Origin: an uncultured virus (IMG/VR IMGVR_UViG_3300045996_000972)
Lineage: Duplodnaviria > Heunggongvirae > Uroviricota > Caudoviricetes
Reading direction: 5' to 3' (one strand)
IMG/VR virus record: IMGVR_UViG_3300045996_000972
Length of the DNA stretch: 64,000 nt
Shown here: positions 3,561 through 58,107 of the stretch, in pieces
Position numbering within the stretch: position 1 is the first letter of the stretch
How the letters are laid out: each line of letters begins with the position of its first letter
Notes under the pieces: model-generated
What the model saw: only the letters and a program-made list of their open reading frames with translations
Databases searched by the model: none
What the model was told of the DNA's origin: nothing
Translations under genes and position numbers: made by a program

Positions 3561-4385
3561 ATGCCAACCCCTTTTGAAACCGATAGAGGTGAAGTATCAG
3601 CTATTGTCAAAGCCAAGAACTGTAAGGATGCGGCTTTTGTTGATGCCACGACCACCTATGCGGAGCTGGCCGCCCTAATGTTCGCTTTCACTGAAATTTT
3701 CTCCTGCTTACCAAGCTATCTTGAAGATCTATTAACGGTCATACCCGACGCGGAACTGTTGACGGAGAACATTTATTTCAACAAAACACTCCCCGGACCA
3801 ATAACCAATCCCATATTCATCGTCAAGTCAACGCTTACCAACGTTGAAATACAAGGGAACGGCGATGTAGAGGCATTGCACATTCACCACGGGTCCGTAA
3901 TAGACACCTTGACGATCAAGTCAGGAACCGACCTGCAGTACCTTCTGGTGGCCGGAGGTAGCGTGATCAACAACCTGGTTATCGAGGACGGGGCCACGAT
4001 CGATTATATCGGGGTCAAAACCTGCAACGGTAAATACGCCAGCAGTGTGCCCCAGGGCTGCGATTTCAGCAAGATCAACGCCTTTTATTTTGAAGAGGTG
4101 GGAGAATTGGGAATCGAAGGAAACGACAACCCGTACACATACACCGCGATCGGACCTAATTCGATCACTATCCCCAAAACCGCGAAAGAGTTTCTCATTG
4201 TCAACCTGGGCAATGGCCTGAACGTATATGCGGACATTACCGTAACGGGAATTACCGGCACAGGCGTAATACCGAAGGATATCGCGCAGTATAAGGTGAA
4301 AGAGGACAGCAAGGATCTTATCACCAATGACATTGTTGTAACTCCGGCAACAGGACACCAAGTGTTCGTAAGCTACACAGTATGA
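3561..4385 (+). CDS. putative virion structural protein (beta-rich)
   Basis: ORF track; short beta-repeat-like segments (GSVIDTLTIK/GSVINNLVIE); ATGA-coupled to the tail fibre. Confidence 0.6.
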   Translation: MPTPFETDRGEVSAIVKAKNCKDAAFVDATTTYAELAALMFAFTEIFSCLPSYLEDLLTVIPDAELLTENIYFNKTLPGPITNPIFIVKSTLTNVEIQGNGDVEALHIHHGSVIDTLTIKSGTDLQYLLVAGGSVINNLVIEDGATIDYIGVKTCNGKYASSVPQGCDFSKINAFYFEEVGELGIEGNDNPYTYTAIGPNSITIPKTAKEFLIVNLGNGLNVYADITVTGITGTGVIPKDIAQYKVKEDSKDLITNDIVVTPATGHQVFVSYTV

Positions 4386-19224: not shown

Positions 19225-19467
19225 ATGGTAAAAGCATTCTTAAAAAAGCTGTTCTCTGCAGATGGAGAAATCTCATCCAAGCGAGTGGTGGGCTTTTTGG
19301 CATTCATGCTCATTTTTGAAATTGTACAATACTATTTGTTCAAACTCAACAGCATCCCGGAATTTATGTTTTGGGGCATTATCACACTGGTGGGAGCTTG
19401 CTTCGGCCTGAACGCCCTTATTGATATGAAGAAAAAAGAGCCTACTAACCCAAACAATAACGAATGA
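19225..19467 (+). CDS. holin (two TM helices)
   Basis: GEISSKRVVGFLAF... with two TMs; ATGA-coupled to the endolysin. Confidence 0.65.
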   Translation: MVKAFLKKLFSADGEISSKRVVGFLAFMLIFEIVQYYLFKLNSIPEFMFWGIITLVGACFGLNALIDMKKKEPTNPNNNE

Positions 19468-19994
19468 TATTCATTTCAGCCGGCCATCATAATCAGGACC
19501 CAGGAGCATCGGGCAAAGGGACCACCGAAGCAGCGCAGACAAAGATCATGCGTGACAAAATTGTCGCAGAGCTCCAAAAATTAGGGTGCAAGTTTATTAC
19601 AGACAACGACAATGAAACCCTGTCCCAATACCTGAAAAGGATTGAAACCGGATCTGGAAGCGTCGTTCTTGAATTACACTTCGACGCATTCAATAAAATA
19701 GCTACCGGATCTACCGCGCTTATGGCCGATGATGCAACAGCCGAAAGCAAGGCTTTTTCGGCTGAATTGGTGGCCACCACTGCCAAAGTGCTAGGAATAC
19801 CCAACCGAGGAGCGAAAGGGGAAGGAGAGTCGAACAGGGGCCGCCTGGGCTTGATGCGTGAACATGGCACCGTTTGTTTGCTGGAAGTGTGTTTTATCGA
19901 CAACGAAAACGATATGCAGAAGTACTACCTGCACAGGGATGAATTGGCCGTGGAGCTGGCCAAGATCATCAAGAAGTACGAGGACTTGAAATAA
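19464..19994 (+). CDS. endolysin, N-acetylmuramoyl-L-alanine amidase (Amidase_3)
   Basis: ISAGH..DPGA..TE, ELHFDA, LLEVCFIDN..D zinc-amidase motifs. Confidence 0.9.
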   Translation: MIFISAGHHNQDPGASGKGTTEAAQTKIMRDKIVAELQKLGCKFITDNDNETLSQYLKRIETGSGSVVLELHFDAFNKIATGSTALMADDATAESKAFSAELVATTAKVLGIPNRGAKGEGESNRGRLGLMREHGTVCLLEVCFIDNENDMQKYYLHRDELAVELAKIIKKYEDLK

Positions 19995-38507: not shown

Positions 38508-41500
38508 ATGGGAAAAATCACCCGCCAGAGCGATAAGTTCAAGAGCACCGATAATCCATTAGCCGGAACGGAAGCAGGAGACGCAACGAATCCGTTGCTT
38601 CAGTTCAACGAGCAGTTAAAAAAAAAAGCCGGTTCGTCCTCTACATCAACCGATGGATCAGCTGGCGGCGAGAAGGTAGAAGACTCACCATCATCATCCA
38701 CTGGTAACAACCCGCTTCTTACATTCAACAAGGAACAAAAACTTGCACCCAACGAGGTCGCAGGTGACTTGCAATCCATTGTTGACGAAGAAAAGAAAAG
38801 AGCCCCTGTTTCTCTTTCCAAAAAAGCATTGGAAGGGGAATCGTTTTTGGATACAGATTTCAGTCAGCATGGTGCCAGCACTGCGGCATTCGATATAAAG
38901 ACCCTTTTGCCGAAACCAATGGGACCGCAGCCAGCTCCGGACCCGTTCACCAGTCATACCCCTAAGCCATACGCGAATAGCAACCTTTTAAAAACGTACA
39001 TCAGCAAGCGCGCCGCTACGGTGGATGCTGAAATAGCCAGGAAGGAGGCCGATATGAAAGAAGCGTACAAGCGCGTTTCAATGTCGGAAATGGTCACGGT
39101 ACGCAATAGCCCAGGATATAAAGCCCGTAAGGCAGATATTGAGGCCAGCAAGTCATACAAAAAACAACTATTTTCTGCGGCAGAGAGCGTAATGACGAAA
39201 CTTGCGGTAGAAGAAAAGTTATCGATCAAATCAAAGAAAGACCTTACCGCGCAGGATTTGGAAGAGGTGGGCGAAATGCGTAGGCTCGTTTCCGGAGATA
39301 CGGAAATTGAAAGAGATCTCGCGAACGTTCAAAAAGCCAAAGGTGCAAAGAAGCACCAGCAGTATACGGAAAAGGTGAAATCCACGAATTTCCTGTACGG
39401 GCAAGACGCGCTCAACAATTACATGGCGGAGTCGCATCAAGAGAAGTTCACTGCCGCGAAGCCCAAGATCGAGCAGATGATTGAGCTGGTTAAGCAGCGC
39501 GATAGCACTTCCAACCAGAAAGAGGCTGTTAAAGCACATGAGCAAATACTGGCACTATCCAAGGACGAAGAAGTTAAGAACTTCATGGACGACCTGAAGG
39601 ATATTTATGACATTCAGACGAAGGGCACAGAGGAATTTAAACAGAAGTATCCGCAGCAGTACAGGGAACAGTTGCGAAGGAAAGCTATCACCGCCTGGGG
39701 AAAGATCGAAGACAGCAAGTTTGTATCAGTCGGCCCGGCTGTAATGAACACATCAGACCCAACAGATGTTTTTGCCGGATTAAAATACTTGTGGTCCAAC
39801 CTTGTTGGAAGCAACCCGGAGAGCGACAAAGACTGGAACGCCATATCCAGAATGACCGGCATACCGGTGGCCACCTTGAAGGACATAAATAAAGACGAGC
39901 TGGAAGGTTGGTTTAGTTCAAATGAAAACTGGTTTGGCGAAAGCGATGCGATCAGGCGACCAGGCTTATTTATGAAGCTAGGTCACAGCTTCGATGAAAT
40001 GGCTTCCAAGTTATTCGTGCAAGGCCCGCGCAGGTTCTTCCGCGTAGAAGACGTGGACCTGAAAAACAAATCCCTGCAAACGAAAATGGAGGCTTTTCAT
40101 TTTCAGCCGCAAGATGATAAACTTATTACCGATCATGGTGATTTCAATTTCAATCCACGATCGATCCTCAACACGATCGGAGAAACTTCCGGCCAGGTTG
40201 CGGTATTCGGAGGACCATCATCAGCCATCGGTGGACTGGTAAAAGGACTTTCGGCGGAAGCTACTGCAGGTGCTAATATCGTCAGCAAGATCGCGACCGG
40301 GGGAACCACATTTACTACCGGGTATCTCGCCAGCTATGAAGACGCCTATCAAGAGGCGGCCAAGTATACCAAGGACGAAGGGAAAAGGAGAGCGTATGCT
40401 TCCTGGGATGCTTTTGCCAATGGCATCAGCGAATTGATATTGCCCGATTCCAAAATACTGGAGTCGATCGCCGGAGCTGGCGGGAAAACAAGTTTCAAGG
40501 CGTTTGAAAAAGCCGTAGCCGAAAAAGGTACCACGATCGCTTTGTTCGAACGAGTAGGAGCTTTCGCCAAAGAGGCCGGGAAGGTTATCGGGGCAGAAAA
40601 TTTGGAAGAGTTCGTGCCGATCATCGTATCATCCTACACGAAGCCCGGAATACTGGACGTTCACCCCGAACCGGGCGAGACAGCAAACGAGTTTATCCAG
40701 TCCATGGTACAAACCACCATAGGAACGCTTGGCATAGGCATAGGCGCGGGTTTAGGAGCTTCCCGAGGCGTTGGCCAGATACGCCGGGAGAGCTTATTTG
40801 AGGCCGGTAATGAGCCGGAGAAGTACATCAACCATTACAACGCATTGGCGGCGGCCGGGAAGATGAACCAAGACGAGGCAAACAAGAATATCCGCATCGT
40901 CAACACCATGACCGGCATCATTAAAGGATTGCCGAAAAACAATCTCAAAGGGAACCCCTTAACATACGATGAAAAGGTCGAATTGGCCGCGCAGCAGTAC
41001 AGGATCAGGATGAACCAGCACATAGCTGACACTTCTCCGATCGATGCGCTGAAAACGACCGCCGAGCAGGATTCTATCGAGGCCGAAGCTGCGCAGCAGG
41101 AAATATTGGAGGGTAAGAGCCCTATTCAGGAAGTGATCACCATGCTCCGGGACAACAAGGCCAGCTTCCCGCTGTATGGCAAGCTAATCGACAGCAATCC
41201 GGAAGAGGTGGTGCGGTTTATCGCTGATCAGGCGCTTGGCAGGGCCGGCGACGGCACCATGTTGGGCGGGAACCAGCGGGAGCAAACGGAAAAGGTATTC
41301 GGGAAAGACCTGGTTGAAAAAGCAATCTCCATTTTCCCTTTAGAGGAAAAAAATGAGCAACCCGCAGAGCCAGCCAAAACACCGGCTAAACCGGTGCCGA
41401 AACAGGATCTTCTTGATGATGCCCTGGATGCGCCCGAAATAAAACCTGAACCCGTTAAAACGACGGAAGTTGTAGCAAAGGTGCCGAAGAAAGATTTACT

Positions 41501-44500
41501 GGACGAGGCATTGAATGAAGACGAGCTGGTGGAAGAACTGGACGTCGAGCCATTCGTTAAGCCGATCGCCATGGACCTGTTAAAGATCGAGCGCGCTGTC
41601 GCAAACAATGGCTACAACATAAGCATTGACTACGATGATGAAATATTGCTCACCGACAAGAAAGGCGACATTGTAGAACCAGACGATGTGCCAGATAGCA
41701 TTAAGCCCATGGTGGAGCAATATGCCACCTACATTGCGAACATTGCTGAAATCGCAGGCAACCCGATGGCCAGGGTGGAGAAGTACAGGAAAGAGCATGA
41801 TGGAGAAGACGCGGAGTTCGAAGTAGTGGAGCCCAATGCACTGCCAGCTCCCACGGTTTCCGAAAAGTACAGCGAACCACAGGACAGCCAGTACGGTAAA
41901 TTCAAAGTATCGATCAAACCTAAAGACGGCAAGCTGGAAGTGGCTGTTGAGGAGCGGGACGAGAAAACCGGCCAGCATAAAAAATCTTCCGCCTATACCC
42001 ATTCTTTCAAAAGCATGGCGGCGGCCGAAAAATACGCGGATGGTGTATTGAAAAAAGACACCACCAAGCCAGAGGCTAAGGTTTCTGACGAGGATCAGAA
42101 ATTGGCGGACCAACTGACAGAGGAAAGAAGGGAGGCCGTTACGAGCCGCTTGATGCGCTTACAGAAGGAATACAATCGGACCCCGGCCAGCTATACGACA
42201 CAATTATCCAATTTAAGGCAAGAGATCCATGCGCTTGCTCAAAAGATCGGCGCAGTAGTACACATGGGCGACGTTACCCATAGCAATTCCCGGAAAACGT
42301 CAAAGCGCGATATAGAACTGAAGGACGCAGAGGGTAAGCCATTGGCCAGAAAGAAATCCCGCATATCGGAAGACGATATTGAAAACGCTATTTCATTAGG
42401 GGATCGATCGCCAGAATTTCAGGCTTTTATTGATGCGGCGATGGATGACATTCTCCACAGCGTCCAGCCAGGCAGCGCATCACGACTGGATAACGGAATG
42501 GCCACCGATCAGATCAAATCAGGGATCAATGCCCTTAAAAAAGGCAGACCGAACAAATACACCTACGATCTTCTGGATAGCCTGGAAACAATGTTCAATG
42601 CCGGATACATTGATTTTGTTCAGTATTCCAGTGGCCATAGTAACAGGCAAGCCGTCCCGGTTGGATATTATACGACCACACAGGAAGCGATAGCCCAGGC
42701 CGTGGATGAATTGGAAGCCGAAGAATTGCAAACGTTCGAAGATCTGAACATTGTGCCAATGGACGTGTTCGATCAGGTGCCGGAATGGTGGGTGAATTAT
42801 TTCGCTGACACGATCACCGAGGAATTGGGTGACGATTTTCTTCCGGAAGATTTCTTGGAAAAGCAAAAAGATTTTGAAAGCATTTATGATGATGCGTTCA
42901 ACGATGATTCCATTTTTAACCTTCAAAATAAAGAGGATGATACAAAAACGGCCAAACGCGCTACGCCTGGCGCAGCGGATCAGCCAATATCCGCAGATAG
43001 TTCAGAAAGAGATATTAAAGAACCTGCTGAAAGCGGCAGCGAGGAAATTGCCGAAGAAGTAAAGCCGAAAACAAAAGAACAGGAGCTCCGGGACCAGCTT
43101 GCAAAAGATAAGGCTGATTTCAAAGAAGCATTGCGGAAGTCAAGAGGCCAAATGAATATGGGTATCGATCCCCAAGTTATCGCTTCCGGTATTAAGCTAC
43201 TGACCAGCTACACCAAACTTGGCATATACAAGTTTTCTGAAATAGCAAGCGACCTGATCAATGATTTTGGCAAAGAGTTCTTTGACGAAGAAAACACCGA
43301 AGCGTTACGCGGAGTGTATTCGTATTATCGCAGCAATCTTCCCAAGGATGAAAGGGGCAAAATGGAAACAGACGACCAGGTGGATGCGGAGATTGAAAAA
43401 ATAAATTCTATCGAGCCAGAAGTTGTGCCTAGTGAATCAATATCGGCAGCGCCTCAAATAACTTTCAACACAACAGCTGACAAAAGCCTTACGGGCGCAC
43501 TGCATCATTTGCAATTACCTTCCGGCACCATATCAGTCGTGGTAGTTCCAGATGGGTTTACAAAAAAAGTTTACGAGCTAACATCAGGGCATCCAATAGC
43601 TTTAACATCAGAGTTTACCGATGAAGGAGCGATAGCAGATATTGTTGATCAGTTGATGGAGAAATCTTTTACTGTCGATAAACTGTATAATAACATATTT
43701 CAGTATGAGCAAACGAATGGATTGAACGGCAAAATCGGTCCAAGAAACGACAGCTTCTATTACAATGAATACAAAAATGAAAGGCTGGCCCAGGAAGAAA
43801 ACAGGCCGTTTGCGCATACAGAGGAACAGCGGGAGTGGTTGCGTAATTTTGCCAAAGAAGCAATTGAAAAAGGGGCAGTTGACATAGCTAGGTTTGCGAC
43901 CCATGCAGTTGACGCGAAAGGCACAGGATGGGGCTTTAGCGAACAGAATTGGCATAGTCGTCTTCAGAATGAACTAGATAAGAGAGAAGTGAGAAGACTG
44001 AGAGCCGCTAATGAACCAATACCGGCTGAGCTGCGGAGCGATTTCAAAGCATTCAATCCGTCTGAAGAAGGGCTAAAAGAAAACCTGCTTGGAAAAACGG
44101 ACAGGACAAACAAGATTGATCCGGAGCTTTATACATCCGTTATACTCCCGGCATGGGAGAAATACGCTACCATATATAACCACTTCGGGTACCTACCAGA
44201 AGATTTTCCTAGAGTTGATAGTTCTGACGCATCAACGCAGGGCCATATCGATCTTCACACCAGCATACTCCTTGCTGCGATACATTCACGTAGCGGAGAT
44301 AAAGAAGCTCGAATTACTGAAGCGACAAAGGACGTGGAAGCTGACGCTGAATTTATTAATATCGTATTTGAGAAATATGGGTTTGAAGCTCCTAGCCCTG
44401 TAATACTCCTTAGCATATACGATGTTCACGCGGATGATGTTATCCGCCACGTCCCTTCGTCTACAAAATACCGGGTGATAAATCCTGATACTGGCGAACT

Positions 44501-47500
44501 AGAAATAATCGGGAAGCCCAATGCGAAAATTGTAGTAGCCGATATCAACGAAGAAGCCTATGTTTTAGTTGAGAACAATTTTAAACCGAAAGAGATTGAA
44601 CAAGACGACGACCAAGAGGACGATGATCAGGACATAGATCGGACATTCGGAGAAGGGAATGCGTTCCCGGTGCCAACAAAAGTGTTCAACGCCGATATCG
44701 CAGGGAAAAACGGACCATTCGTTACCCCGGAAGAAGCTGAGGCAACATTGGAAAGTTGGAGAGTAGCCGCGGAAGAATTGGCAAAGACGCAGGACAACAG
44801 CAAAAAAGTAGTAATCTCATTATTTGATTTCACCGGCGTAGCAACACAGGGCTATCACTTAGCTGGATATACGACCATCCACTTAGACATTCAGCACAAA
44901 GAAGACGAGGGTGAGCCAGGGGAAATTGACTACGAAACGATCACAGAAGCGTTGAAGTCTGGTGAGCGTCGACTTTCAGCCAGGGTAGACATGGCGGAGG
45001 AGTTCCCGGAAGTCATGTTCCAGTTAAAACAGGCATTGGTTGATATGGGTTATACGGTAGAAGGGGTGTTCTCTTTTACTCCATGTACCACCTTTGCAGC
45101 AAGCGGGGCCAAGCACTGGAAAACGCTGCATGAAGTAGAAAGTTTTGACGAGGTGATGAAGCGTTACGGATGGTGGGCTGCCAAGCACTTTGACACACCG
45201 CACGAATACAATAAATATCTGGTGAGTGTTACCGAGCAGTGGTTACTCACCATGAACCCCACAAGGTTTTCCGCAATGGAAAATCCAGTCGGACGTATTC
45301 ATACAGAAACCGGACTACCGGAACCAGCGTTATTGTTTCATCCTCACAACTTCGGAGATCCTTACACTAAGAAAACACAGATTTGGGGCAAGTTCAATCC
45401 TATGCTCCCGATGAACAACGTTTATCCTTCAGAGGGTAGTAAAATCCAATCAAAGCTGAGTAGCAAACAGAAGGTTGAGAGGTCAGCGACCCCGGAGGGA
45501 TTTGCCATGGCGTTCTTTATGGCTAATAGCGATGCTGCGCAGCAAGGACAAGCACCCGTTCCGGCTGAACAAGCTGCCATTTTGGAAGCCGATATTCAGG
45601 TTGCACAGAACGACAAAACGCCAGAACAAAAAGCGATCGAGGATATGATCGCGCAGAAACAAGCAGAGTTGGCCAACGCTGAAAAGGATCTTCGCAAAAC
45701 CGGAAGAAACACCGATAAGCGGATAATGAATAACACCCCCGACTTATGGGGTGAAACCCAAGAGCAGCGGGATATTTTCGGTGGAACCGTGGATGCTTCG
45801 GCCAGAGGCAAGGCCACCGAGAAAAAGCGGAACAAGGTTGAAAGGCTGAAGAATGAGCTGAACAAATTAAGCAAGCAATTGGAAGCGGTCAGCGGCCAGC
45901 CATCGGCACAGCAGGAAATCTTCACCCCGGAAGAAGGGAAAAAAGAGTATGATTTTTCTTTCCCGAACCACGTGGAGCTCCTTACGAATGGTGCCACCGT
46001 TTCTGATGCAAACGAAATATGGAGCGAGAGCCAAGAAAAGCTGGAAGACTATCTAAAACCCATTAAGGACCAGATTCAATTACTGGCAGAGCAATACCGG
46101 GACCAGAAGGACAAGAAAGTAAAAGCCACCATTAAAGCGGAGATCGATCGGTTACAATCGGAAGGTGACGACATTCAGGCAGCATACAACAGGGCGCAGA
46201 ACACGGACTACGATATCACCTTGGCATTTGTAAAGCGCAGAGCCCAGGCGGACGGAATTGCCTTGACGGATAATGAGGCGGTAGACGCTACCGGCGAGCT
46301 ATATGCTACCATGTACGAACGGCCGGGAGTAGAGTGGAGTTGGGAGGAAAAGATCGACAGCGTGGTGACTTATGTGCTTTCCGCATATCGCGATCAGGAT
46401 AGTGATGCTTTTGACCTGGTTAAAACGCCCACCCATGAGAAAGCGGCAGAGTATTTGGGAACTGGTACTAATAACCCTGCTTCGGGATGGTTTTATTCCA
46501 TGCTGAACAGCTTCGCCAGCAACAATTTGACAGATCTCGTTGAAAACAACATGATCGAGGCGATTTCTGAAGGGCTGGAGAACGATGCTGATTATAGCAG
46601 CGCGCTCGAACAACTGGAAAATATACTTGGCGTAACTTTACAGGGGGATCGTCAACAGGCTTACGACCAGTTGAAAAAGAAGTGGGATTCAATTTTCGGC
46701 AATAAAACTCAACCAAATGAGCCAGAAAATAATACAGGAACAGGAGGCGCAGCAGTTAGGAGTGAACGGCCAGATGCTGCTGGAAATGCTGAAGGAACAC
46801 AATCAGCCGAAGTATCGGGAACTGTCGCAGTCGGGGCAACTGATGCCAATGCTGACCAAGGCGGAACAGGAGTACAGCGACAACCTGGACTTTTTGATGA
46901 ACAAACAGGGGTACAACCAGAGCGAGGCCAGGGAAATAGCGTGGCCGCAGATAACGCAGCGGTTCGGAATAAAGTAAAGAACTTTTACCTCCCCGACGAC
47001 TATCAGGAAGAAACGACTTTCAATAAGCGCAAACGCTTCGCAGATAACATTGCTGCCCTTCAAACCTTACTCACCTTACAGAAGGAAGCGCGGATGCCCA
47101 ACTCCGAAGAACAGCTCCTATTGGCCAAATTCGTAGGTTGGGGCGGCTTAAAGCAGATTGAGATAGACCCGGAGGTTGACAGTAAATGGAACGTCCAGTC
47201 TGATCTTCAGTACCGGGATATGGTTCGGACAGCCAGGAACATCATTAAAGAACTGGATCCGGACGGCAAGAGGGCGATGTTGGATGCTGCTATCAAAAGC
47301 ACAGCTAATGCTCACTATACGTCTTTCCCGGTCATTAAGGCGATGTACGACGCTATTGGTAAAATGGGCTTTACTGGCGGTACTGTTTTAGAAACGTCAG
47401 CAGGGGTAGGGAACTTCTTCGCAGCGATGCCTTCGTCTTTTTCGCATCACTCACAGCTCACAGCGATCGAGAAGGATGATATCACCGGGATGATCCTCCA

Positions 47501-50500
47501 ATGCCTGTACCCAAATGCGGCTACTTTCGTCAACGGATATGAAAACGTTGCACTGCCAAACAATCACTACGATTTGGCAATATCTAACGTGCCGTTCGGT
47601 AAAATAGGTATCATCGATGCGAATTTCAGAAACAACAAAGACAAGCGTTACGCAACCGCAGCAAGCAGGATACACAATTACTTCTTTGTAAGAACAATGC
47701 AACACCTTCGCCCAGGCGGGGTGATGGCGTTTATCACTTCGAGATACACGTTGGATAGCATGGAAGCTAAAGAGGTTCGCGAACTGCTTGCAGAACAAGG
47801 CGAGTTTTTGGGTGCTGTAAGGTTGCCGGACACCGCATTTAAAGCAAACGCCGGAACAGAAGTAGTTACCGACATTATCTTCTTCCGTAAATATGAGGAG
47901 GGCGAAGCTCCGAAGGAAAATCAGCCATTCCTGCGCGTTCTTGACAGGGACATTACAGAGAACGACCACACGGTTAAAGTGAAGTATAATGAGTACTTCC
48001 ATGCGAACCCGGACCACATGATCGGGCAAATAACATTCGGCGGATTGTACCGGGAAGATGAATTTTTCCTTATGGGGGATCCTAAATCGGATATCCGGGC
48101 CGAAATAAATACAGCCACCGACAGGTTCCTCAACAAGAAACTATTCCACGAACACCAGAAGAACGTCAATCAGAAAATAAAGAAGGACGTTGATGCTTAT
48201 GTAGAAAAGGGCGATTACGACAAAGTGGGTAATCTGGTTACGCTGGCAAACGGTGACGTTGGAAGGGTAACGGGCGAGTTCTTTGTTAATGAAGAATTGG
48301 ACCAGAAAGCAAGAGACTTGGGGATAAATCCAGATAGCATTCGCTTGGGTAAAATCACCTGGTACGAGCAAGAAACACTTACCAAGAACGGTTTGAAACC
48401 CGATATGTGGGATATAAAAACTGTTACGAAGATTTCGACCAATGCCAAAAGCAGAAAATACGCTCCGGAGCTTATCAATATCCGGAACCTTGCCACGAAA
48501 TTATTCATGCAGGAGGTTCAGGACTTCCCCGAGTACCTAATTGACGAGACAAGGGCGGAATTAAAGTCGGCATATGAGAAGTTCAAAAAACAGCATGGCT
48601 TCATCAATACCAATAAAGAGGTTGTCAAGTTCTTAGAGAACGAAGCAGATCAGCACACTATCCGCGCGTTGGAAATATTTGACAAGCCAGCCAACCAATG
48701 GAAGCCTTCTGATCTTTTCGTGAAACGGACTATTAGGCCAGCAAAGACCATTACCAGAACGGATAACGTTCGCGACGCGCTGATTATCTCTTTCCAAGAG
48801 TACGGCAACGTGAACATGGACCGCATGGCGGAGTTAATGGGAAAGACCGTAGAGGAGGTTTTTGAATCTGAACAGAAGGAGGGCGGTTTACTTTTTAAAA
48901 CACCTGCAGGTGAATACGTCGATCGCGAAGATTATCTGTCCGGGAACGTTAAAAAGAAGCTGGCAGAAGCAAAAGAGGCCGGGTTAGATCATAACGTAGC
49001 AGAGCTTAACAAAGTGATTCCGGAAGATATTCCTGCCGGACAAAAAATATTCTCACCATTACAGGCAAGGTGGATCCCGGAGGATATTATTCAGCAGTTC
49101 CTTGAAGAAGTCGTTACAGGCGGGACACGCATTCGGTTGAAGTACGACAAGGTAAAAGACGAATATTCCGTCAACATTTATGGTTCCACCCCGGAAACAC
49201 AGGCGCTTAATACCGATCGGCGTTCTGCCTCATGGATTTTACAACACGCGCTAAAAGGAAAAGAACCAGTTGTTGAATGGACCGATGATGATGGTAAGAA
49301 GCACCTGGACGAGCAAGACACCATGAAAGCGGTGGAGCTTTATAAGATGGTGCGGGAAAAATTCGACAATTGGAAATGGGAGGACGTGGATCGCCGCGAG
49401 AAGCTGGCTAGGATTTACAATGACCTGTTCAACACTACCGTTGAGCGTCAATATGACGGAAGCCATCTTCAGTTCCCAGGCATGAACACCCACCCTGTTA
49501 ATGGGTTCAGCCTACGCCCACACCAAAAAGATGCGGTATGGAGGTTCGTACAGACTGGTGGTGGCATCGCTGATCACATGGTCGGCGCGGGTAAGACGCT
49601 CATCATGATCGCCACGGTTATGGAAATGCGCCGATTGGGTAAGTCTAAAAAACCAATGATTATCGGCCTCAAATCACAGGTGCCGCAAATGGTCGCGGAG
49701 TTCCGAAAAGCATACCCGTTGGCCAAGGTGCTTTATCCTTCAAAGAACGAATTTGATGCGAAAAACAGGAAGCGTATGCTTTCACAGATCGCGACCAATG
49801 ATTGGGATTGCGTAGTGCTTACTCATGACCAGTTCAATAAGATACAACAGTCGGTGGAGATTCATAAGGCATTGCTGGATGAACTGCTGGATGATCTGAA
49901 AGAGCAGTTGGCCATGGAGGACAATAAAAACGAAAGGAAGAAGATTCAGAAAAGGATCGATAGTTACGAGGAGAAAATTTCAAAACTTCTTGATGCCGAC
50001 AAGGACAGGGACGTGATGAACTTTGCTGAATTGGGCGTAGACTTTCTGGCCGTTGACGAAAGCCAAGAATACAAAAACCTTGAATACACCACCCGGCACC
50101 AGAATATCCGCGGACTTGGGAACGTAGCAGGATCCAAAAGGGCATTCAATCTCCTTATCGCGTCTAGGCAAATTCAGGCGATTCACCAAGAGGATCACGG
50201 GATATTATTTGCTTCTGGTACGCCGATTTCAAACACCTTGGCCGAGTTGTATTTGCTATTCAAGTATCTGCGTCCAGCCAAGATGCGCGAATTGGGTATT
50301 AATACATTTGATAAATGGGCGTCAACCTTTGCGGATCAGGCCACGGAGCTGGAATTTTCCGGTGGCCGCTGGAAAGAAATATCGAGGTTCAGAAGGTTTG
50401 CGAACGTTCCGGGCCTGTTGAGCTTATACCGGGAGATTGCTGACGTTCGGAACAGGACCAATCTGGTCCTCCCACGTCCGGAGGCAAAGCACCACCTGGT

Positions 50501-53500
50501 TGTTATTTCGCCAACCGAAGCGCAGAACGAGTTTATGAAAATGCTTCTTCGTTTCATTGACACGAAGGGGAAGGTTCACAGGGAGGTTCTTGGTTTATCA
50601 AACGGATGGGACGAGGACAAAGACCGTAACCCGGCTTACGCGATCATGGCCACCACTTTCGGCAAGAGACTGGCGCTGGATACCCGCGTGATCAGCCGGA
50701 CTGCAGCACCAGGCGCGAAAATCTCTAGGGCTGCCGATACGATTTATGAGGAATACGTTAAGTCAAACCATTACAAGGGTACGCAGCTTGTGTTTTGCGA
50801 TCTCGCAACACCCAAAAGCCAGAATACCGTTGTCAATCTTTATGACTACTTCCAGAACCTTGACACTTTCACCGAGACGGATCTGAACGAGGTGTTTGGC
50901 GACGATTTCCAGAACAAGGAGAGTAAGCCATCACTTTCCGATATCAAAGAAAGGATGCGAAAGGTGCTTGAATTGACCGATCAGGAAATTGACGGTATGA
51001 TTCAAGAGGCAAATACTTCTGAACCATTCAACGCATACGATGATCTGAAGCACGAATTAATTAAGCGGGGTATTCCTGCCGAGGAAATTGAGTTCATCCA
51101 TAATCACGAAGGAGACGTTAAAAGGCAAGCACTTTACAACAATCTGAATGAGGGCAATGTTCGCGTGGCATTAGGCAGCACTAAGAAAATGGGAACTGGC
51201 GTGAATGTGCAAAAGCGGGTTATAGCTATGCACCACCTGGATATTCAATGGCGGCCATCGGATATGGAGCAACGAAATGGCCGTGGCGAACGCCAGGGTA
51301 ACGAAATGGCGGAGCTGCACAAAAACAACACCGTTGATATTTACTACTATGCTACCGAGAGGTTAATGGATGCTGAAATGTACAGCGTGGTAGGCCAGAA
51401 AGCGGCAATGATTGAATCGCTGAAGTCTGCCGGTGCCGATGTTTATGAGATTGAGGACTTGGAGAGCCAACCGGACATCAGCTTGTTTGCGGCAACCTTA
51501 TCCGGAGATCCTTTATTCAAGGAAAGGGAAGAAACCAGAAAGAGGGTTGACTACCTGCGTAAATCTTTGGCAGCGTTCCGGGACAGCCGATATGAGACGG
51601 AAAAAAGGTTGCGCCATGCTAAAATCATCATCGATGCAAAAAAAGAAACCATCGATGAATTGAAAAAAGCGTTGAAGTACGTTGAGAAAATCCCCAAAAC
51701 GGAGGACGATGAATATATCTTCCAAGCGGAGATTGATGGCGAAACCTACGACAAGGTTGGAGAGGCTGGTGCCGCTGTTGTGAAATTCAACATGGAGGCG
51801 TTATTGTCAAAGCCATACGAGAAAGATTTCAAGATCGGAACAATATGGGGCTTTACGATAGTCGGCCAAATCACCAAGGTTCGCCAGGGTAAAGAAATTA
51901 TCCGAAAAATAATTTCTCCGGATGGCACATTGATAGGGGCAGAGGCGGTGTTCTCCATCAACGATGTTTCAGCGGGAATACAAATCAAGCAGCCGATTAC
52001 CGAAATAGCCAAGAACATCCGGCAAGCGGAAGAATCGATCGCGACACAGACCGCGAACATTCCGAAGTACGAAGAACAACTGAAGGGCGATTTCCCACAC
52101 ATGGCGGAGCTGGAGCAAAAGCAAGCGCGCATGAAGGAGATCGAGGACGAGTTCAGGAAAAGGGAAGAAGAAGAACGTCGCCGGGAGAGTGCAGCCGGTC
52201 AGGAATACGACAAGGAAGACGACGAGGATGGCGACTTGCCAGAGGATGATGATGATATTCGTGAAAACCGCATGGCGGATATGACTGCGCTGATCAACAG
52301 GGCCACCAGTAAAAAGCCGGTAGTAGATGCCAAAGAAGCGGAAAAGCTTTTGAAGCACCTCAGCCAGAAATACGGCATAGAGGGTGTACTGGCCGACCTG
52401 GGCGCGTTTGGTTCCCATGGCCAGTTCAGCCGCAGGGATATGAAGGTTCGGATCAACAGGCTTTCCACGCTGGATAAAGACGGTCAATATTCCGCAGAAA
52501 TAACCGGGAACATCAACCGGAGGACCATCTTCCATGAGTATCTCCACCCGTTTGTTGAGTTATTGAGGGATGCCAACCCCGAATTGTTCAATCAGCTGGC
52601 CGGCCAGGCGGCGGCCGCGGTGGCCGATGATCTTTCCAATTACGCGGCCAGCAAGCGCGAGGAAGAGGTGGTTGTTCGGTATTTGGACCAGCTTTCAGAT
52701 CAAGACCAGCCGCCAAGTGCATGGAAACGGTTTTGGAACGCGATTTCAGAGTTCTTCTTTGGCAAGCGCAAGAACGATCGCGCCACCCTGGAACAGCTAT
52801 CGAAGGACACCACCGTAGAGGAATTGTATAAGATCTTCCAGAATTATGGCAACCTAAAGGCCGATGCCGCGCCGGTTATCGATCGCAATCGTCTTAGCGA
52901 TGAAATCGCTATTACCAAGGTATTGCTGGAAACAACAACGGACGACAATGTTCGTTTGGCGCTGGAACGCATATTGGAGGAGCAAGAGGCTTCGCTGATC
53001 TCCCACGATCAGTCAGCACCCAACAAGGAGCAACGGATCAAAAATGCCCTGCTTACAATGGCATTCAACTCCATTCTTGACGGGATCAGCAAAGAGGATT
53101 TCCTGAACGACACCGTTACCGCGTTCACCGGCCGGTATGGCGGGACGACAGAAGAAAAGAGCAACATCCGGAAAGCCTACGAGCAAGCGGAGCAGCTTTT
53201 GGCCGAAATTGATGCTGCCGTAAACGACCCTGCCGCGATCGATGCGATCATTGACCGGGTGAGCTTCGGACCGCTGGCGGACGATATTCGCCGTTACGCG
53301 GCCCAAAATAAGGGGCAGGGGGCGGCCGAGGAGGAAACGCAGCCGGAGGACGAAGGTGCCGAGGAATCAAGCCAGAATGCGCCAGGGAGCGATTTTCTGG
53401 ACGATTTCCAGCTTACCACGGCCAGCAACAAGATACAGCAGCTCCAATCGGGCAGAACTTTGGAAGAGGTGTACGGCGAAATGCCGGAGGGCGACCAGTC

Positions 53501-54122
53501 GTACCACGTCAACGAGCTGGCCGGGATGATCACCGATGGCGAAGCCATGATCGGCAAGGCCAAGGCGGTATACCAAACGGACGATATTGCTGGTTGGGGT
53601 CCCAAGTTCCTGAACTACCTGAAAACTGCCAGGTGGGAGAACGCGGCGAAGAAAACCATTGCCCTGGGCAGGCTGATCCACCACATCAAAGAGGGTAAGC
53701 TGAATGGCCGGCCGGACCTGAACAGGTTGGAACAGCAAGCCTTAACCTACTGGCAAGAGCTGATGCGCTCCGCGTCCCTTTCACTCAACTCCGGACGTTT
53801 GCTGCGGTTGCTGCGCGACGAGGAGCTTGCCGACTTCTACATCGATCGCATTTTGAACGAGAACGAGGTAAAGGCCAAGCGCGGGATAGTGGAGAACGAG
53901 GGCAGCGTGATCGTTACGGACGACATTGCAGAGAAGGGCAGCAAGACCACAGAGGAAGACGTGGCCGAGCTGGTGGAGAAAACTAAACGCCACGCGAAAG
54001 AGGAAAAGAAAAAAGCGAACACGAAGAAGTATGCGGAAAAGGCGAAGGAGAAAAAATCTGAATTGGAAAATTCCGACCTGATAGACAAAATCAAAAACTT
54101 TTTAAACAACCTGAAATGCTAA
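38508..54122 (+). CDS. 5204-aa polyvalent (DarB-like) protein: C5-cytosine MTase, N6-adenine MTase, SNF2 helicase, HExxH zincin
   Basis: SLFDFTG 44817, PC 45081, ENP 45279; VLETSAGVGNFF 47385, NVPF 47586; DHMVGAGKT 49572, DESQ 50055, QRNGRGERQGN about 51270; HEYLH 52533. Confidence 0.85.
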   Translation: MGKITRQSDKFKSTDNPLAGTEAGDATNPLLQFNEQLKKKAGSSSTSTDGSAGGEKVEDSPSSSTGNNPLLTFNKEQKLAPNEVAGDLQSIVDEEKKRAPVSLSKKALEGESFLDTDFSQHGASTAAFDIKTLLPKPMGPQPAPDPFTSHTPKPYANSNLLKTYISKRAATVDAEIARKEADMKEAYKRVSMSEMVTVRNSPGYKARKADIEASKSYKKQLFSAAESVMTKLAVEEKLSIKSKKDLTAQDLEEVGEMRRLVSGDTEIERDLANVQKAKGAKKHQQYTEKVKSTNFLYGQDALNNYMAESHQEKFTAAKPKIEQMIELVKQRDSTSNQKEAVKAHEQILALSKDEEVKNFMDDLKDIYDIQTKGTEEFKQKYPQQYREQLRRKAITAWGKIEDSKFVSVGPAVMNTSDPTDVFAGLKYLWSNLVGSNPESDKDWNAISRMTGIPVATLKDINKDELEGWFSSNENWFGESDAIRRPGLFMKLGHSFDEMASKLFVQGPRRFFRVEDVDLKNKSLQTKMEAFHFQPQDDKLITDHGDFNFNPRSILNTIGETSGQVAVFGGPSSAIGGLVKGLSAEATAGANIVSKIATGGTTFTTGYLASYEDAYQEAAKYTKDEGKRRAYASWDAFANGISELILPDSKILESIAGAGGKTSFKAFEKAVAEKGTTIALFERVGAFAKEAGKVIGAENLEEFVPIIVSSYTKPGILDVHPEPGETANEFIQSMVQTTIGTLGIGIGAGLGASRGVGQIRRESLFEAGNEPEKYINHYNALAAAGKMNQDEANKNIRIVNTMTGIIKGLPKNNLKGNPLTYDEKVELAAQQYRIRMNQHIADTSPIDALKTTAEQDSIEAEAAQQEILEGKSPIQEVITMLRDNKASFPLYGKLIDSNPEEVVRFIADQALGRAGDGTMLGGNQREQTEKVFGKDLVEKAISIFPLEEKNEQPAEPAKTPAKPVPKQDLLDDALDAPEIKPEPVKTTEVVAKVPKKDLLDEALNEDELVEELDVEPFVKPIAMDLLKIERAVANNGYNISIDYDDEILLTDKKGDIVEPDDVPDSIKPMVEQYATYIANIAEIAGNPMARVEKYRKEHDGEDAEFEVVEPNALPAPTVSEKYSEPQDSQYGKFKVSIKPKDGKLEVAVEERDEKTGQHKKSSAYTHSFKSMAAAEKYADGVLKKDTTKPEAKVSDEDQKLADQLTEERREAVTSRLMRLQKEYNRTPASYTTQLSNLRQEIHALAQKIGAVVHMGDVTHSNSRKTSKRDIELKDAEGKPLARKKSRISEDDIENAISLGDRSPEFQAFIDAAMDDILHSVQPGSASRLDNGMATDQIKSGINALKKGRPNKYTYDLLDSLETMFNAGYIDFVQYSSGHSNRQAVPVGYYTTTQEAIAQAVDELEAEELQTFEDLNIVPMDVFDQVPEWWVNYFADTITEELGDDFLPEDFLEKQKDFESIYDDAFNDDSIFNLQNKEDDTKTAKRATPGAADQPISADSSERDIKEPAESGSEEIAEEVKPKTKEQELRDQLAKDKADFKEALRKSRGQMNMGIDPQVIASGIKLLTSYTKLGIYKFSEIASDLINDFGKEFFDEENTEALRGVYSYYRSNLPKDERGKMETDDQVDAEIEKINSIEPEVVPSESISAAPQITFNTTADKSLTGALHHLQLPSGTISVVVVPDGFTKKVYELTSGHPIALTSEFTDEGAIADIVDQLMEKSFTVDKLYNNIFQYEQTNGLNGKIGPRNDSFYYNEYKNERLAQEENRPFAHTEEQREWLRNFAKEAIEKGAVDIARFATHAVDAKGTGWGFSEQNWHSRLQNELDKREVRRLRAANEPIPAELRSDFKAFNPSEEGLKENLLGKTDRTNKIDPELYTSVILPAWEKYATIYNHFGYLPEDFPRVDSSDASTQGHIDLHTSILLAAIHSRSGDKEARITEATKDVEADAEFINIVFEKYGFEAPSPVILLSIYDVHADDVIRHVPSSTKYRVINPDTGELEIIGKPNAKIVVADINEEAYVLVENNFKPKEIEQDDDQEDDDQDIDRTFGEGNAFPVPTKVFNADIAGKNGPFVTPEEAEATLESWRVAAEELAKTQDNSKKVVISLFDFTGVATQGYHLAGYTTIHLDIQHKEDEGEPGEIDYETITEALKSGERRLSARVDMAEEFPEVMFQLKQALVDMGYTVEGVFSFTPCTTFAASGAKHWKTLHEVESFDEVMKRYGWWAAKHFDTPHEYNKYLVSVTEQWLLTMNPTRFSAMENPVGRIHTETGLPEPALLFHPHNFGDPYTKKTQIWGKFNPMLPMNNVYPSEGSKIQSKLSSKQKVERSATPEGFAMAFFMANSDAAQQGQAPVPAEQAAILEADIQVAQNDKTPEQKAIEDMIAQKQAELANAEKDLRKTGRNTDKRIMNNTPDLWGETQEQRDIFGGTVDASARGKATEKKRNKVERLKNELNKLSKQLEAVSGQPSAQQEIFTPEEGKKEYDFSFPNHVELLTNGATVSDANEIWSESQEKLEDYLKPIKDQIQLLAEQYRDQKDKKVKATIKAEIDRLQSEGDDIQAAYNRAQNTDYDITLAFVKRRAQADGIALTDNEAVDATGELYATMYERPGVEWSWEEKIDSVVTYVLSAYRDQDSDAFDLVKTPTHEKAAEYLGTGTNNPASGWFYSMLNSFASNNLTDLVENNMIEAISEGLENDADYSSALEQLENILGVTLQGDRQQAYDQLKKKWDSIFGNKTQPNEPENNTGTGGAAVRSERPDAAGNAEGTQSAEVSGTVAVGATDANADQGGTGVQRQPGLFDEQTGVQPERGQGNSVAADNAAVRNKVKNFYLPDDYQEETTFNKRKRFADNIAALQTLLTLQKEARMPNSEEQLLLAKFVGWGGLKQIEIDPEVDSKWNVQSDLQYRDMVRTARNIIKELDPDGKRAMLDAAIKSTANAHYTSFPVIKAMYDAIGKMGFTGGTVLETSAGVGNFFAAMPSSFSHHSQLTAIEKDDITGMILQCLYPNAATFVNGYENVALPNNHYDLAISNVPFGKIGIIDANFRNNKDKRYATAASRIHNYFFVRTMQHLRPGGVMAFITSRYTLDSMEAKEVRELLAEQGEFLGAVRLPDTAFKANAGTEVVTDIIFFRKYEEGEAPKENQPFLRVLDRDITENDHTVKVKYNEYFHANPDHMIGQITFGGLYREDEFFLMGDPKSDIRAEINTATDRFLNKKLFHEHQKNVNQKIKKDVDAYVEKGDYDKVGNLVTLANGDVGRVTGEFFVNEELDQKARDLGINPDSIRLGKITWYEQETLTKNGLKPDMWDIKTVTKISTNAKSRKYAPELINIRNLATKLFMQEVQDFPEYLIDETRAELKSAYEKFKKQHGFINTNKEVVKFLENEADQHTIRALEIFDKPANQWKPSDLFVKRTIRPAKTITRTDNVRDALIISFQEYGNVNMDRMAELMGKTVEEVFESEQKEGGLLFKTPAGEYVDREDYLSGNVKKKLAEAKEAGLDHNVAELNKVIPEDIPAGQKIFSPLQARWIPEDIIQQFLEEVVTGGTRIRLKYDKVKDEYSVNIYGSTPETQALNTDRRSASWILQHALKGKEPVVEWTDDDGKKHLDEQDTMKAVELYKMVREKFDNWKWEDVDRREKLARIYNDLFNTTVERQYDGSHLQFPGMNTHPVNGFSLRPHQKDAVWRFVQTGGGIADHMVGAGKTLIMIATVMEMRRLGKSKKPMIIGLKSQVPQMVAEFRKAYPLAKVLYPSKNEFDAKNRKRMLSQIATNDWDCVVLTHDQFNKIQQSVEIHKALLDELLDDLKEQLAMEDNKNERKKIQKRIDSYEEKISKLLDADKDRDVMNFAELGVDFLAVDESQEYKNLEYTTRHQNIRGLGNVAGSKRAFNLLIASRQIQAIHQEDHGILFASGTPISNTLAELYLLFKYLRPAKMRELGINTFDKWASTFADQATELEFSGGRWKEISRFRRFANVPGLLSLYREIADVRNRTNLVLPRPEAKHHLVVISPTEAQNEFMKMLLRFIDTKGKVHREVLGLSNGWDEDKDRNPAYAIMATTFGKRLALDTRVISRTAAPGAKISRAADTIYEEYVKSNHYKGTQLVFCDLATPKSQNTVVNLYDYFQNLDTFTETDLNEVFGDDFQNKESKPSLSDIKERMRKVLELTDQEIDGMIQEANTSEPFNAYDDLKHELIKRGIPAEEIEFIHNHEGDVKRQALYNNLNEGNVRVALGSTKKMGTGVNVQKRVIAMHHLDIQWRPSDMEQRNGRGERQGNEMAELHKNNTVDIYYYATERLMDAEMYSVVGQKAAMIESLKSAGADVYEIEDLESQPDISLFAATLSGDPLFKEREETRKRVDYLRKSLAAFRDSRYETEKRLRHAKIIIDAKKETIDELKKALKYVEKIPKTEDDEYIFQAEIDGETYDKVGEAGAAVVKFNMEALLSKPYEKDFKIGTIWGFTIVGQITKVRQGKEIIRKIISPDGTLIGAEAVFSINDVSAGIQIKQPITEIAKNIRQAEESIATQTANIPKYEEQLKGDFPHMAELEQKQARMKEIEDEFRKREEEERRRESAAGQEYDKEDDEDGDLPEDDDDIRENRMADMTALINRATSKKPVVDAKEAEKLLKHLSQKYGIEGVLADLGAFGSHGQFSRRDMKVRINRLSTLDKDGQYSAEITGNINRRTIFHEYLHPFVELLRDANPELFNQLAGQAAAAVADDLSNYAASKREEEVVVRYLDQLSDQDQPPSAWKRFWNAISEFFFGKRKNDRATLEQLSKDTTVEELYKIFQNYGNLKADAAPVIDRNRLSDEIAITKVLLETTTDDNVRLALERILEEQEASLISHDQSAPNKEQRIKNALLTMAFNSILDGISKEDFLNDTVTAFTGRYGGTTEEKSNIRKAYEQAEQLLAEIDAAVNDPAAIDAIIDRVSFGPLADDIRRYAAQNKGQGAAEEETQPEDEGAEESSQNAPGSDFLDDFQLTTASNKIQQLQSGRTLEEVYGEMPEGDQSYHVNELAGMITDGEAMIGKAKAVYQTDDIAGWGPKFLNYLKTARWENAAKKTIALGRLIHHIKEGKLNGRPDLNRLEQQALTYWQELMRSASLSLNSGRLLRLLRDEELADFYIDRILNENEVKAKRGIVENEGSVIVTDDIAEKGSKTTEEDVAELVEKTKRHAKEEKKKANTKKYAEKAKEKKSELENSDLIDKIKNFLNNLKC
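46717..46977 (+). CDS. nested +1-frame TnpV-like small protein
   Basis: GQMLLEMLKEHNQPKYRELSQSGQLMPML..AE..Y; TAAAACTCAACCAA leader; overlies a low-complexity linker of the giant ORF. Confidence 0.55.
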   Translation: MSQKIIQEQEAQQLGVNGQMLLEMLKEHNQPKYRELSQSGQLMPMLTKAEQEYSDNLDFLMNKQGYNQSEAREIAWPQITQRFGIK

Positions 54123-57743: not shown

Positions 57744-58094
57744 ATGAAAGAACTTTATAGCTCCCATGCCGACGAGCTGAAGGTGGCCGAAGAACGGCCA
57801 ATCAGGAAAGCTGCCGAGTTTCGCGGCCGCACCCCACTCCGCAAAGGACAAACCTGCTACGAGCTGAACCTGGCTACCGGCGAAATAAAGCCAGCAGAGT
57901 ACGAGACTGTAACCGCGCCATACATGAGCAAGGCAAGCCAGATCGGCTTCCTAATGAGCGGAGGGACCGTTATCGCGGCCGGCAGTACTCACCGGAAGCT
58001 GATGATCCGGGAGGGATGCCTGTATGAGATCGCATTGAACGACACAAATGCCAAGCGAAAGTTTGAAAATCGTCTGGCTCCTTTCAAAAAATAA
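57744..58094 (+). CDS. hypothetical protein
   Basis: ORF track; A/C-rich leader. Confidence 0.6.
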   Translation: MKELYSSHADELKVAEERPIRKAAEFRGRTPLRKGQTCYELNLATGEIKPAEYETVTAPYMSKASQIGFLMSGGTVIAAGSTHRKLMIREGCLYEIALNDTNAKRKFENRLAPFKK

Positions 58095-58107
58095 GGCTCC
58101 ACCCCCA

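Follow-up and report, generated by a model that had tools for sequence, protein, structure and literature searches.

Whether a short open reading frame (ORF) lying entirely within a much larger phage gene is a gene in its own right, or no more than what the out-of-frame reading of a long sequence leaves open, is the question raised by a locus of the uncultured virus IMGVR_UViG_3300045996_000972 (IMG/VR; Caudoviricetes), of which a stretch of 64,000 nucleotides (nt), here called the window, was analysed. At 46717..46977 on its plus strand, an ORF of 86 codons from ATG to TAA (its product is called P0001 in the following) lies in the +1 frame of a giant ORF at 38508..54122 (plus strand), which codes for a polyvalent, DarB-like protein of 5204 amino acids. 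A first-pass annotation, made from the letters of the sequence, had described this small ORF with its A-rich leader, likened its product to the transposon-encoded TnpV family and proposed a genuinely nested gene. ORF, leader and +1 offset are as described, and we consider it quite probable that 46717..46977 is a real, functional and separately translated nested short-form TnpV gene, substitution patterns in the family and its nearest clade indicating that the TnpV frame bears the main coding constraint in the shared stretch.

The small ORF is an embedded gene in the strict sense, being located wholly inside the larger gene, on the same strand and in its +1 frame. The +1 frame is open from stop to stop over 46675..46977 (100 codons), the preceding stop codon (46672..46674, plus strand) lying 14 codons 5' of the nested ATG. 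Read in the main frame, the same DNA (46715..46975, plus strand) gives 87 codons, NEPENN...RNKV, which begin NEPENNTGTGGAAVRSERPDAAGNAEG and form the low-complexity linker that the first-pass annotation had recognised, rich in G (16%), A (16%), V (10%), N (9%) and Q (8%) and devoid of I, Y, W, M, C and H. This linker and the subsequent methyltransferase (MTase)-helicase module follow an N-terminal part of 2736 amino acids for which no Pfam match was found. The start of the MTase module, comprising an N-terminal helical region, a GWGG motif and the MTase core, extends over 47001..47915 (plus strand; 35-41% identity to modules of Bacillota plasmids), and its alignment thus begins 24 nt past the nested stop, in keeping with the described position of the small ORF just before the N6-MTase/helicase module. 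Since contigs from two soil-metagenome runs belonging to two studies are identical to the window wherever they cover the nested region (contig X2 covers 46600-46966, contig X1 is without cover at about 46785-46968, and one of the runs may be the window's own source), an assembly slip is unlikely to be the origin of the two-frame layout.

With respect to family membership, P0001 matches the Pfam family TnpV (PF14198) with an E-value of 3.8e-7 and 30.5 bits compared to a gathering cut-off of 27, residues 6-63 being aligned with profile positions 15-72 of 111, and the likeness to TnpV claimed earlier is hence upheld by a profile search. A second profile, built from 9 plasmid and 74 viral nested ORFs under exclusion of the window, picks out P0001 alone from the 760 ORFs found in six frames of the window, with an E-value of 6.7e-18 and 60.5 bits and an alignment over profile positions 13-92 of 98. 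The 83 nested sequences form 67 clusters at 90% amino acid identity, and of the 58 members of alignment A2, consisting of P0001 and 57 viral nested ORFs, 31 match Pfam TnpV individually and none matches another family. Searches for proteins sharing words with P0001 gave no match, whether of near or of greater length, and neither did tblastn of P0001 against phages. The codon usage of the TnpV frame, as scored with a table trained on the other genes of the window, is 0.197 per codon, compared to 0.192 ± 0.052 for the main frame of the giant ORF elsewhere, and exceeds all 171 +1-frame windows elsewhere in that ORF (-0.261 ± 0.10); the main frame over the nested gene scores 0.092, corresponding to the 4.7th percentile of main-frame windows. 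Profile matches and codon usage are both far beyond chance.

Is this arrangement peculiar to one phage? Searching plasmids with P0001 by tblastn leads to Clostridium plasmids, where the match lies under an annotated 'SNF2-related protein' and a TnpV-like ORF of 118 codons is found at +1 within a coding sequence (CDS) of 2109 codons. With this Clostridium protein as query 26 plasmid records were matched, 18 of them under giant SNF2/helicase/LPD25/pentapeptide CDSs, two under free-standing 'TnpV protein' genes and six in unannotated records. At nine of nine plasmid loci (Clostridium, Enterococcus, Bacillus, Virgibacillus), the TnpV-like ORF lies at +1 inside a giant CDS, having 113-123 codons from stop to stop and an ATG near the 5' end.

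Further viral and genome loci were chosen by the MTase module only (alignment A1), their six-frame ORFs being then searched with the nested-ORF profile, and metagenome loci were chosen with the likewise MTase-based query A4; the 80 viral and 80 genome loci are those among the matches listed, an estimated 660 or so viral and 3900 or so genome stretches lying beyond them. In the viral loci, the profile gave 74 matches among 7825 ORFs, on the plus strand without exception, and 73 of the 80 loci have a match inside the giant ORF, all 73 at +1, although these viral numbers are partly self-trained as the profile was iterated on the viral set from 21 matches in the first round to 74; one locus (L058) carries an additional free-standing match. 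The 80 genome loci gave 50 matches among 6770 ORFs, again all on the plus strand, of which 47 are nested, without exception at +1, and three are not (fragmentary ORFs in L109, L137 and L166). Among the 2007 ORFs of 53 metagenome loci there are 26 matches, 19 of them nested and all 19 at +1, with the remaining seven, in five loci, not nested. As a control for self-training, the profile had no match on the minus strands of these loci (4832, 4343 and 1301 ORFs, respectively) and none in frame 0 or +2 of the intact giant ORFs.

In cultured phages, 21 records have a match under genes annotated as 'DarB-like antirestriction' (the name given by RefSeq to the homologous genes), 'DNA methylase', 'Snf2 family helicase' or 'PLxRFG protein', amongst them Vibrio phage VvAW1, for which the offset computed from the record coordinates is +1, Agrobacterium phage Atu_ph08, Klebsiella phage LASTA and Microcystis phage Mwe-JY07. 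A separate small gene is annotated neither at any of the 18 plasmid matches under giant genes nor in any of the 21 phage records listed. In Pseudomonas phage Itty13 (L224, NC_070969, 6505-7956), a hypothetical protein is annotated on the opposite strand across both the giant frame and the nested TnpV-like ORF, which is probably a mis-call. The nested pair is thus found across Bacillota, Bacteroidota and phages of Proteobacteria and cyanobacteria. A position directly 5' of the MTase module is characteristic of the window and of most phage copies but not of all elements, as in Clostridia elements 300-3600 nt separate the nested gene from the MTase match downstream.

If the nested frame codes for a protein, its codon positions should evolve as such, and a dual-frame substitution comparison across homologues had been proposed as a check by the first-pass annotation. 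Among the de-replicated nested genes, 71 pairs reach at least 60% nucleotide identity; in these, TnpV codon positions 1, 2 and 3 show 0.306, 0.256 and 0.422 differences per site, respectively, so that the third position of the giant frame is the least and its first position the most variable, whereas the adjoining MTase region shows a normal pattern in the main frame (0.198, 0.138 and 0.507). In every one of the 71 pairs, amino acid identity is higher in the TnpV frame (mean 0.57) than in the main frame (mean 0.42). Within the Bacteroidota clade, represented by 8 sequences in 23 pairs with 75-95% nucleotide identity, changes silent in the TnpV frame only outnumber those silent in the main frame only by 628 to 145, compared to 984 and 1198, respectively, among all possible single changes. 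These comparisons indicate that, in the family as a whole and in the Bacteroidota clade nearest to the window, it is mainly the TnpV frame that is under purifying selection, and together with the Pfam match and the +1 frames open at the loci listed above they bear out the proposal of a genuinely nested gene. Despite this bias, both frames are open in nested pairs everywhere. In AT-rich plasmids the G + C content of the overlap is raised (0.31-0.49 vs 0.25-0.38), which is the expected outcome of stop avoidance in two frames.

Several observations weigh against the reading of 46717..46977 as a functional gene. No profile match was obtained at 7 of the 80 viral, 30 of the 80 genome and 29 of the 53 metagenome loci; five of the genome loci have less than 600 nt upstream, and in most of the metagenome loci (by eye) the ORF begins near the MTase match and belongs to distant MTase genes with 25-32% identity, but L030 and L043 are genuinely without an open +1 frame while their main frame looks normal. 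In four of the match-free viral loci (L018, L049, L065, L085), a motif resembling G-[LM]-x-x-x-x-A-x-E-L can be seen by eye in a short +1 ORF, some 700 nt upstream of position 4001. In Sinorhizobium phage PBC5 (L225, NC_003324, 25645-27063), the TnpV-like part forms the frame-0 C-terminal end of the annotated upstream 'DarB-like antirestriction' CDS, due either to a real in-frame fusion or truncation or to an indel in an old sequence. The Pfam match of P0001 is partial, being confined to profile positions 15-72 of 111, and the length of the nested ORF is no more than chance yields in the giant ORF, as it is the second longest of 225 open +1-frame stretches. The longest of these stretches (44077-44403, plus strand, 108 codons) has no match to the nested-TnpV profile. 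Furthermore, the pairs used for the selection analysis are phylogenetically non-independent, and aligning them in the TnpV frame gave that frame some advantage; the selection result applies to the family and the nearest clade, which has 24-28% amino acid identity to P0001, rather than to the window's own lineage. Finally, P0001 is a short form without about 20 N-terminal residues of its nearest relatives, its translation is read from the DNA, with no RNA run among the sequencing runs found to contain the window, and the function suggested for it below draws on weak hints.

Some of these points would also be expected if an ancestral tnpV had been swallowed at the fusion that built the giant gene and were now decaying, with a +1 frame that is open by recent descent and no longer translated or needed, and the nearest relatives of the window's copy are informative in this regard. 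The closest MTase modules are those of L090, from a Bacteroidota metagenome-assembled genome (MAG; 52% identity), and of L091, from a Sphingobacteriales MAG (51%), which fits a Bacteroidota host for the phage. Single-sequence scans of viral and metagenome contigs with the window's MTase region found no close relative, and blastn against phages turned up just four short stretches matching the MTase core, at about 66% identity. The nested proteins of L090, L091 and 13 related metagenome loci have 102-107 amino acids compared to the 86 of P0001. In line with decay are, besides this shorter length, the chance-like length of the +1 stretch and the scope of the selection result, the lack of a Shine-Dalgarno site and of a convincing promoter; a sigma-70 promoter scan gave two sites where 0.8 were expected and is uninformative, and the host may use promoters of another type.

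However, nested proteins of the L090/L091 type align to 85 of the 86 codons of P0001 and have the same C-terminal end, with a motif E-x-x-W-P-x-[IL]-[TV]...G-[LI]-x-stop common to P0001 and its Bacteroidota relatives, and P0001 is 28% and 24% identical to the proteins of L090 and L091, respectively, in the TnpV frame, as opposed to 16% in both cases in the main frame. Short forms of 66-93 amino acids are moreover the rule in other phage copies (e.g., L010, L017, L019, L025), the profile built without the window is matched end to end, codon usage in the TnpV frame equals that of the real genes of the phage, and none of the 43 of 756 possible single changes that would create a stop in the window's TnpV frame is present. 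Decay is therefore a rather unlikely explanation for the window's copy, though the least unlikely of those considered besides a functional gene. At L090, a topoisomerase-III-like frame (about 2260-3140, plus strand, read from its translation) terminates some 20-30 nt short of the MTase-helicase ORF with the nested gene inside, which suggests a Bacteroidota conjugative-element context for this nearest relative.

A functional nested gene also has to be translated, either from its own start or by way of the giant gene. The nested ORF is preceded by an A-rich leader that lacks a Shine-Dalgarno site, and by reading the same holds for the 22 other gene starts in the window, none of which has such a site and many of which have A-rich leaders; because the other genes of the phage have none, no Shine-Dalgarno site is to be expected at the nested ATG either. 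Elsewhere, a Shine-Dalgarno-like motif lies 7-12 nt before the nested ATG in eight of nine plasmid loci (by eye), and by a scored rule a match of at least 5 nt is found at 39 of 45 genome loci, compared to a fraction of 0.18 in matched controls, and at 40 of 73 viral loci, compared to 0.07 in controls. In 50 of the 64 viral loci listed, there is a +1-frame stop only 0-8 codons before the chosen start. Ribosomes would accordingly initiate independently at the internal ATG, using an own Shine-Dalgarno site in Bacillota and many phage versions and an A-rich leader here. A termination-reinitiation link between the nested gene and the MTase module was considered as well and dropped, the next main-frame ATG after the nested stop being located near 47091 (by eye).

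The alternative would be a programmed +1 frameshift, by which ribosomes translating the giant gene slip and produce a fusion of the N-terminal part with the TnpV-like part that ends at 46977, without any independent small protein. The layout of PBC5, where the annotated upstream ORF continues in frame into the TnpV-like part and stops there, would fit such a fusion, as would the best match of the structural model in BFVD (Q8W6J4_2, E 0.14), which is a piece of a long viral protein. Yet the +1 stop at 46672..46674 would confine the frameshift to an entry window of 42 nt, and no slippery or stop-stimulated site is seen by eye in 46675-46720; furthermore, the best 150 homologues from a library of 1.84 billion proteins are all small proteins. 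The enrichment of Shine-Dalgarno sites together with the nearby upstream +1 stops favours independent initiation over a frameshift fusion, and we regard the latter as very improbable. As for the possibility that the ORF arose by chance and that its profile match is spurious, an effect of translating a low-complexity linker in the wrong frame, for which one might invoke the other alternative-frame ORFs of about 100 codons in the giant ORF and the ease with which helical low-complexity sequences draw weak matches, it is contradicted by two independent profile matches, by the absence of matches from the minus strands of related loci, by the identical +1 offset of each match inside a giant ORF and by the wobble-type substitution pattern in the TnpV frame, and it hardly deserves further consideration.

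What, then, might the nested protein do? AlphaFold2 run on alignment A2 gives an all-helical bundle (predicted local distance difference test, pLDDT, 90.9; predicted template modelling score, pTM, 0.76) with helices at residues 16-28, 30-39, 42-63 and 68-82, so that the prediction agrees with the helical protein described by the first-pass annotation, and P0001 is modelled as a mildly acidic four- or five-helix bundle of 86 amino acids. Its net charge is -2, equal to the family median (pI 5.8), and it has no enzyme-like features. A role as a DNA mimic or DNA-binding protein was set aside as the nested proteins are only mildly acidic. Foldseek comparison of the model with PDB and BFVD found nothing at E ≤ 0.001. 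The best structural neighbour is the uncharacterised protein PG0816 of Porphyromonas gingivalis (PDB 2apl; VIA-align Z 7.4, root-mean-square deviation 1.8 Å over 62 residues, 23% identity), which is fourth in the Foldseek ranking and a borderline profile match (E 0.047); it differs in having 149-157 amino acids, of which only about the first 70 align to the nested protein, and it is at most a possible homologue, as a Z below 8 falls among common helical arrangements. Designed helical repeats topping the PDB profile search were taken as compositional. In the ESM Atlas, unnamed clusters of about 85 amino acids at 0.86-0.89 and a further cluster with 11% TnpV members provide leads only.

A profile search of 1.84 billion representative proteins resulted in 4141 matching clusters, 649 of them at E ≤ 1e-10. 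The best 150 of the 4141 all have 72-480 amino acids, with no giant protein amongst them, and a TnpV-like domain is thus not seen in frame in polyvalent proteins. Pfam searches with 15 longer homologues revealed one MarR domain, one weak HTH_31 and one response-regulator receiver, which hints at a protein-binding or regulatory module. The in-frame fusions in question, which are rare, are P0112, combining MarR with two TnpV-like stretches (480 amino acids), P0134, with a TnpV-like part followed by the receiver (215 amino acids), and P0095, with a weak HTH_31 and a TnpV-like part (217 amino acids). Prediction of a complex between P0001 (A2) and the first 420 amino acids of the MTase module (A3) gave a score of 0.00 and a mark of 0.32, which speaks neither for nor against binding. 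For the TnpV family itself, an excision factor has been 'postulated' by likeness to lambda Xis (PMC3158075), and TnpV has been described as having 'unknown function, may be involved in transfer' (PMC12084326); the passages on TnpV in these two papers assign no function beyond such postulates. One possible, though doubtful, role is that of an accessory protein, i.e., an adaptor, chaperone or regulator acting by protein contacts during the establishment of incoming mobile DNA, for which the giant host protein would be the obvious candidate partner; an enzyme or a DNA-binding protein is less likely.

Besides a partner of the methylase-helicase, the first-pass annotation had envisaged a relic of the fusion that built the polyvalent protein. 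In three pairs of loci, nucleotide identity rises from 50-85% upstream to 97-100% downstream, in the MTase module, and the jump is located at the 3' end of the nested gene in L001 (5214-7700)/L009 and in L007/L008 and inside the nested gene in L069/L073, so that the nested gene stays with the upstream part in two of the three recombinant pairs. As judged from these three pairs, the nested gene appears to mark a recombination joint between variable N-terminal parts and a conserved MTase-helicase module; its connection with the joint of the fusion can therefore be retained, but not the notion of a dead relic.

The low-complexity and poorly conserved main frame, the existence of a family of 4141 clusters of small proteins and giant ORFs that start close upstream (only 10-170 nt before the nested gene in L081, L090 and L091) suggest that the linker was overprinted on an older tnpV. 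The small TnpV gene would then be the older of the two, with the linker frame of the giant gene arising over it when upstream domains were fused to the MTase-helicase module. The giant gene appears to need its own frame over the overlap only to be open, as a flexible low-complexity tether between the N-terminal 2.7 thousand amino acids and the MTase-helicase module. Two loci (L201, 880-1320; L220, 1019-1459) have a free-standing ORF with a weak likeness to the nested family (19 bits) that ends 42 nt before a shorter MTase gene, and this may be the unfused arrangement.

Taken together, and put forward tentatively, these findings could be read as an ancient two-frame module common to phages, plasmids and integrative and conjugative elements (ICEs) across phyla. 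In this scenario, a free-standing tnpV in front of an MTase-helicase gene was read through in the -1 frame and thereby turned into a tether able to receive changing N-terminal weapon domains, and the nested protein might be a dedicated small partner, be it a chaperone, adaptor or switch, that controls the delivery or the activity of the injected MTase-helicase.

To our knowledge, only a small number of genes nested out of frame in another gene and conserved across long evolutionary distances have been established in bacteria and phages, where such cases are rare. The lambda spanin genes Rz and Rz1 also consist of a small gene lying wholly within a larger phage gene in its +1 frame, both frames being maintained, but the two are similarly small, act in lysis and have products that bind to one another. 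In the window, by contrast, the host gene is 5204 codons long, the overlap coincides with a disordered linker, the embedded gene comes from an independent and widespread family, and a partnership of the products is only a candidate. In Bacillus subtilis, comS is a small regulatory gene that lies out of frame in the giant multidomain gene srfAB and has its own start; with 46 codons it is lineage-restricted, whereas the nested tnpV pair occurs in Bacillota and Bacteroidota as well as in phages of Proteobacteria and cyanobacteria. The TnpV proteins of the clostridial mobilisable transposons Tn4451 and Tn4453 belong to the same Pfam family (PF14198) as the nested gene and are likewise small helical proteins of mobile elements. 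The Tn4451-type gene, however, is free-standing and codes for about 110-125 amino acids including an N-terminal strand segment (of the type Y-x-E-x-[DN]-G-x-L-[YI]-P), while the window gene is an 86-amino-acid form wholly inside another phage gene, from which this segment is missing, as P0001 starts about 20 residues later and its Pfam match begins at profile position 15.

Polyvalent proteins, including the MTase-helicase antirestriction proteins resembling P1 DarB, have been described (Iyer et al. 2017, PMC5512222), and the giant ORF of the window likewise has the dyad of MTase and SNF2/ResIII helicase in a giant multidomain phage protein. In the main text of that paper, neither TnpV nor the words 'overlapping' or 'frameshift' occur, and the second frame is thus outside the published description of polyvalent proteins given there. 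In ICEs of Streptococcus suis, 17 cargo elements, each with a 'TnpV transposase gene', are reported as integrated specifically into the snf2 gene of the ICE (PMC9815147), the TnpV genes being drawn beside split snf2 genes and assigned to the inserted integrative mobilisable elements. Given the nesting, a number of these TnpV genes might be part of the split snf2 gene itself, or integration might be targeted to the nested region. Descriptions of the nesting were not found in the parts consulted of the literature on TnpV/PF14198, DarB-type antirestriction and embedded genes. The TnpV family, polyvalent/DarB-like proteins and embedded +1 genes in phages are known, the nesting of tnpV was not found in print, and the window copy is a further, short-form member of the nested tnpV set from a probable Bacteroidota phage.

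Downstream of the nested gene, the plus strand of the giant ORF encodes an Eco57I-type N6-adenine MTase (47553..47801, Pfam match at residues 318-400 of the translation starting at 46602), a ResIII/DEAD-like helicase N-terminal domain (49506..49865), an SNF2-related domain (best stretch 50205..50336) and a Helicase_C domain (51069..51296), all matched by Pfam, so that an N6-adenine MTase and an SF2 (SNF2/ResIII) helicase are joined in a single phage ORF as in polyvalent/DarB-like proteins. The phage character of the window is evident from an endolysin (19464..19994) and a large terminase (58048..60273). Most of the 23 large window ORFs tested have no PHROG match, which points to a poorly charted phage; two other very large ORFs without a PHROG match lie at 4382-11515 (2377 amino acids) and 12305-16846 (1513 amino acids), both on the plus strand.

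The nested gene is carried by giant 'polyvalent' anti-restriction genes, which many a phage or conjugative element delivers to new hosts, and it is missed by routine annotation. Gene callers as well as Ribo-seq and proteomics pipelines should therefore allow for a nested tnpV, and inactivating a giant gene may eliminate two genes without this being noticed. For the TnpV family, so far an orphan, the nesting provides a defined and testable context, and the pair would illustrate the overprinting of a disordered linker on a pre-existing gene and mark the joint at which modular proteins are rebuilt. If the reading as an ancient two-frame module is true, it would rank with the most widespread out-of-frame nested pairs conserved in the mobile elements of prokaryotes, absent though it is from standard annotation.

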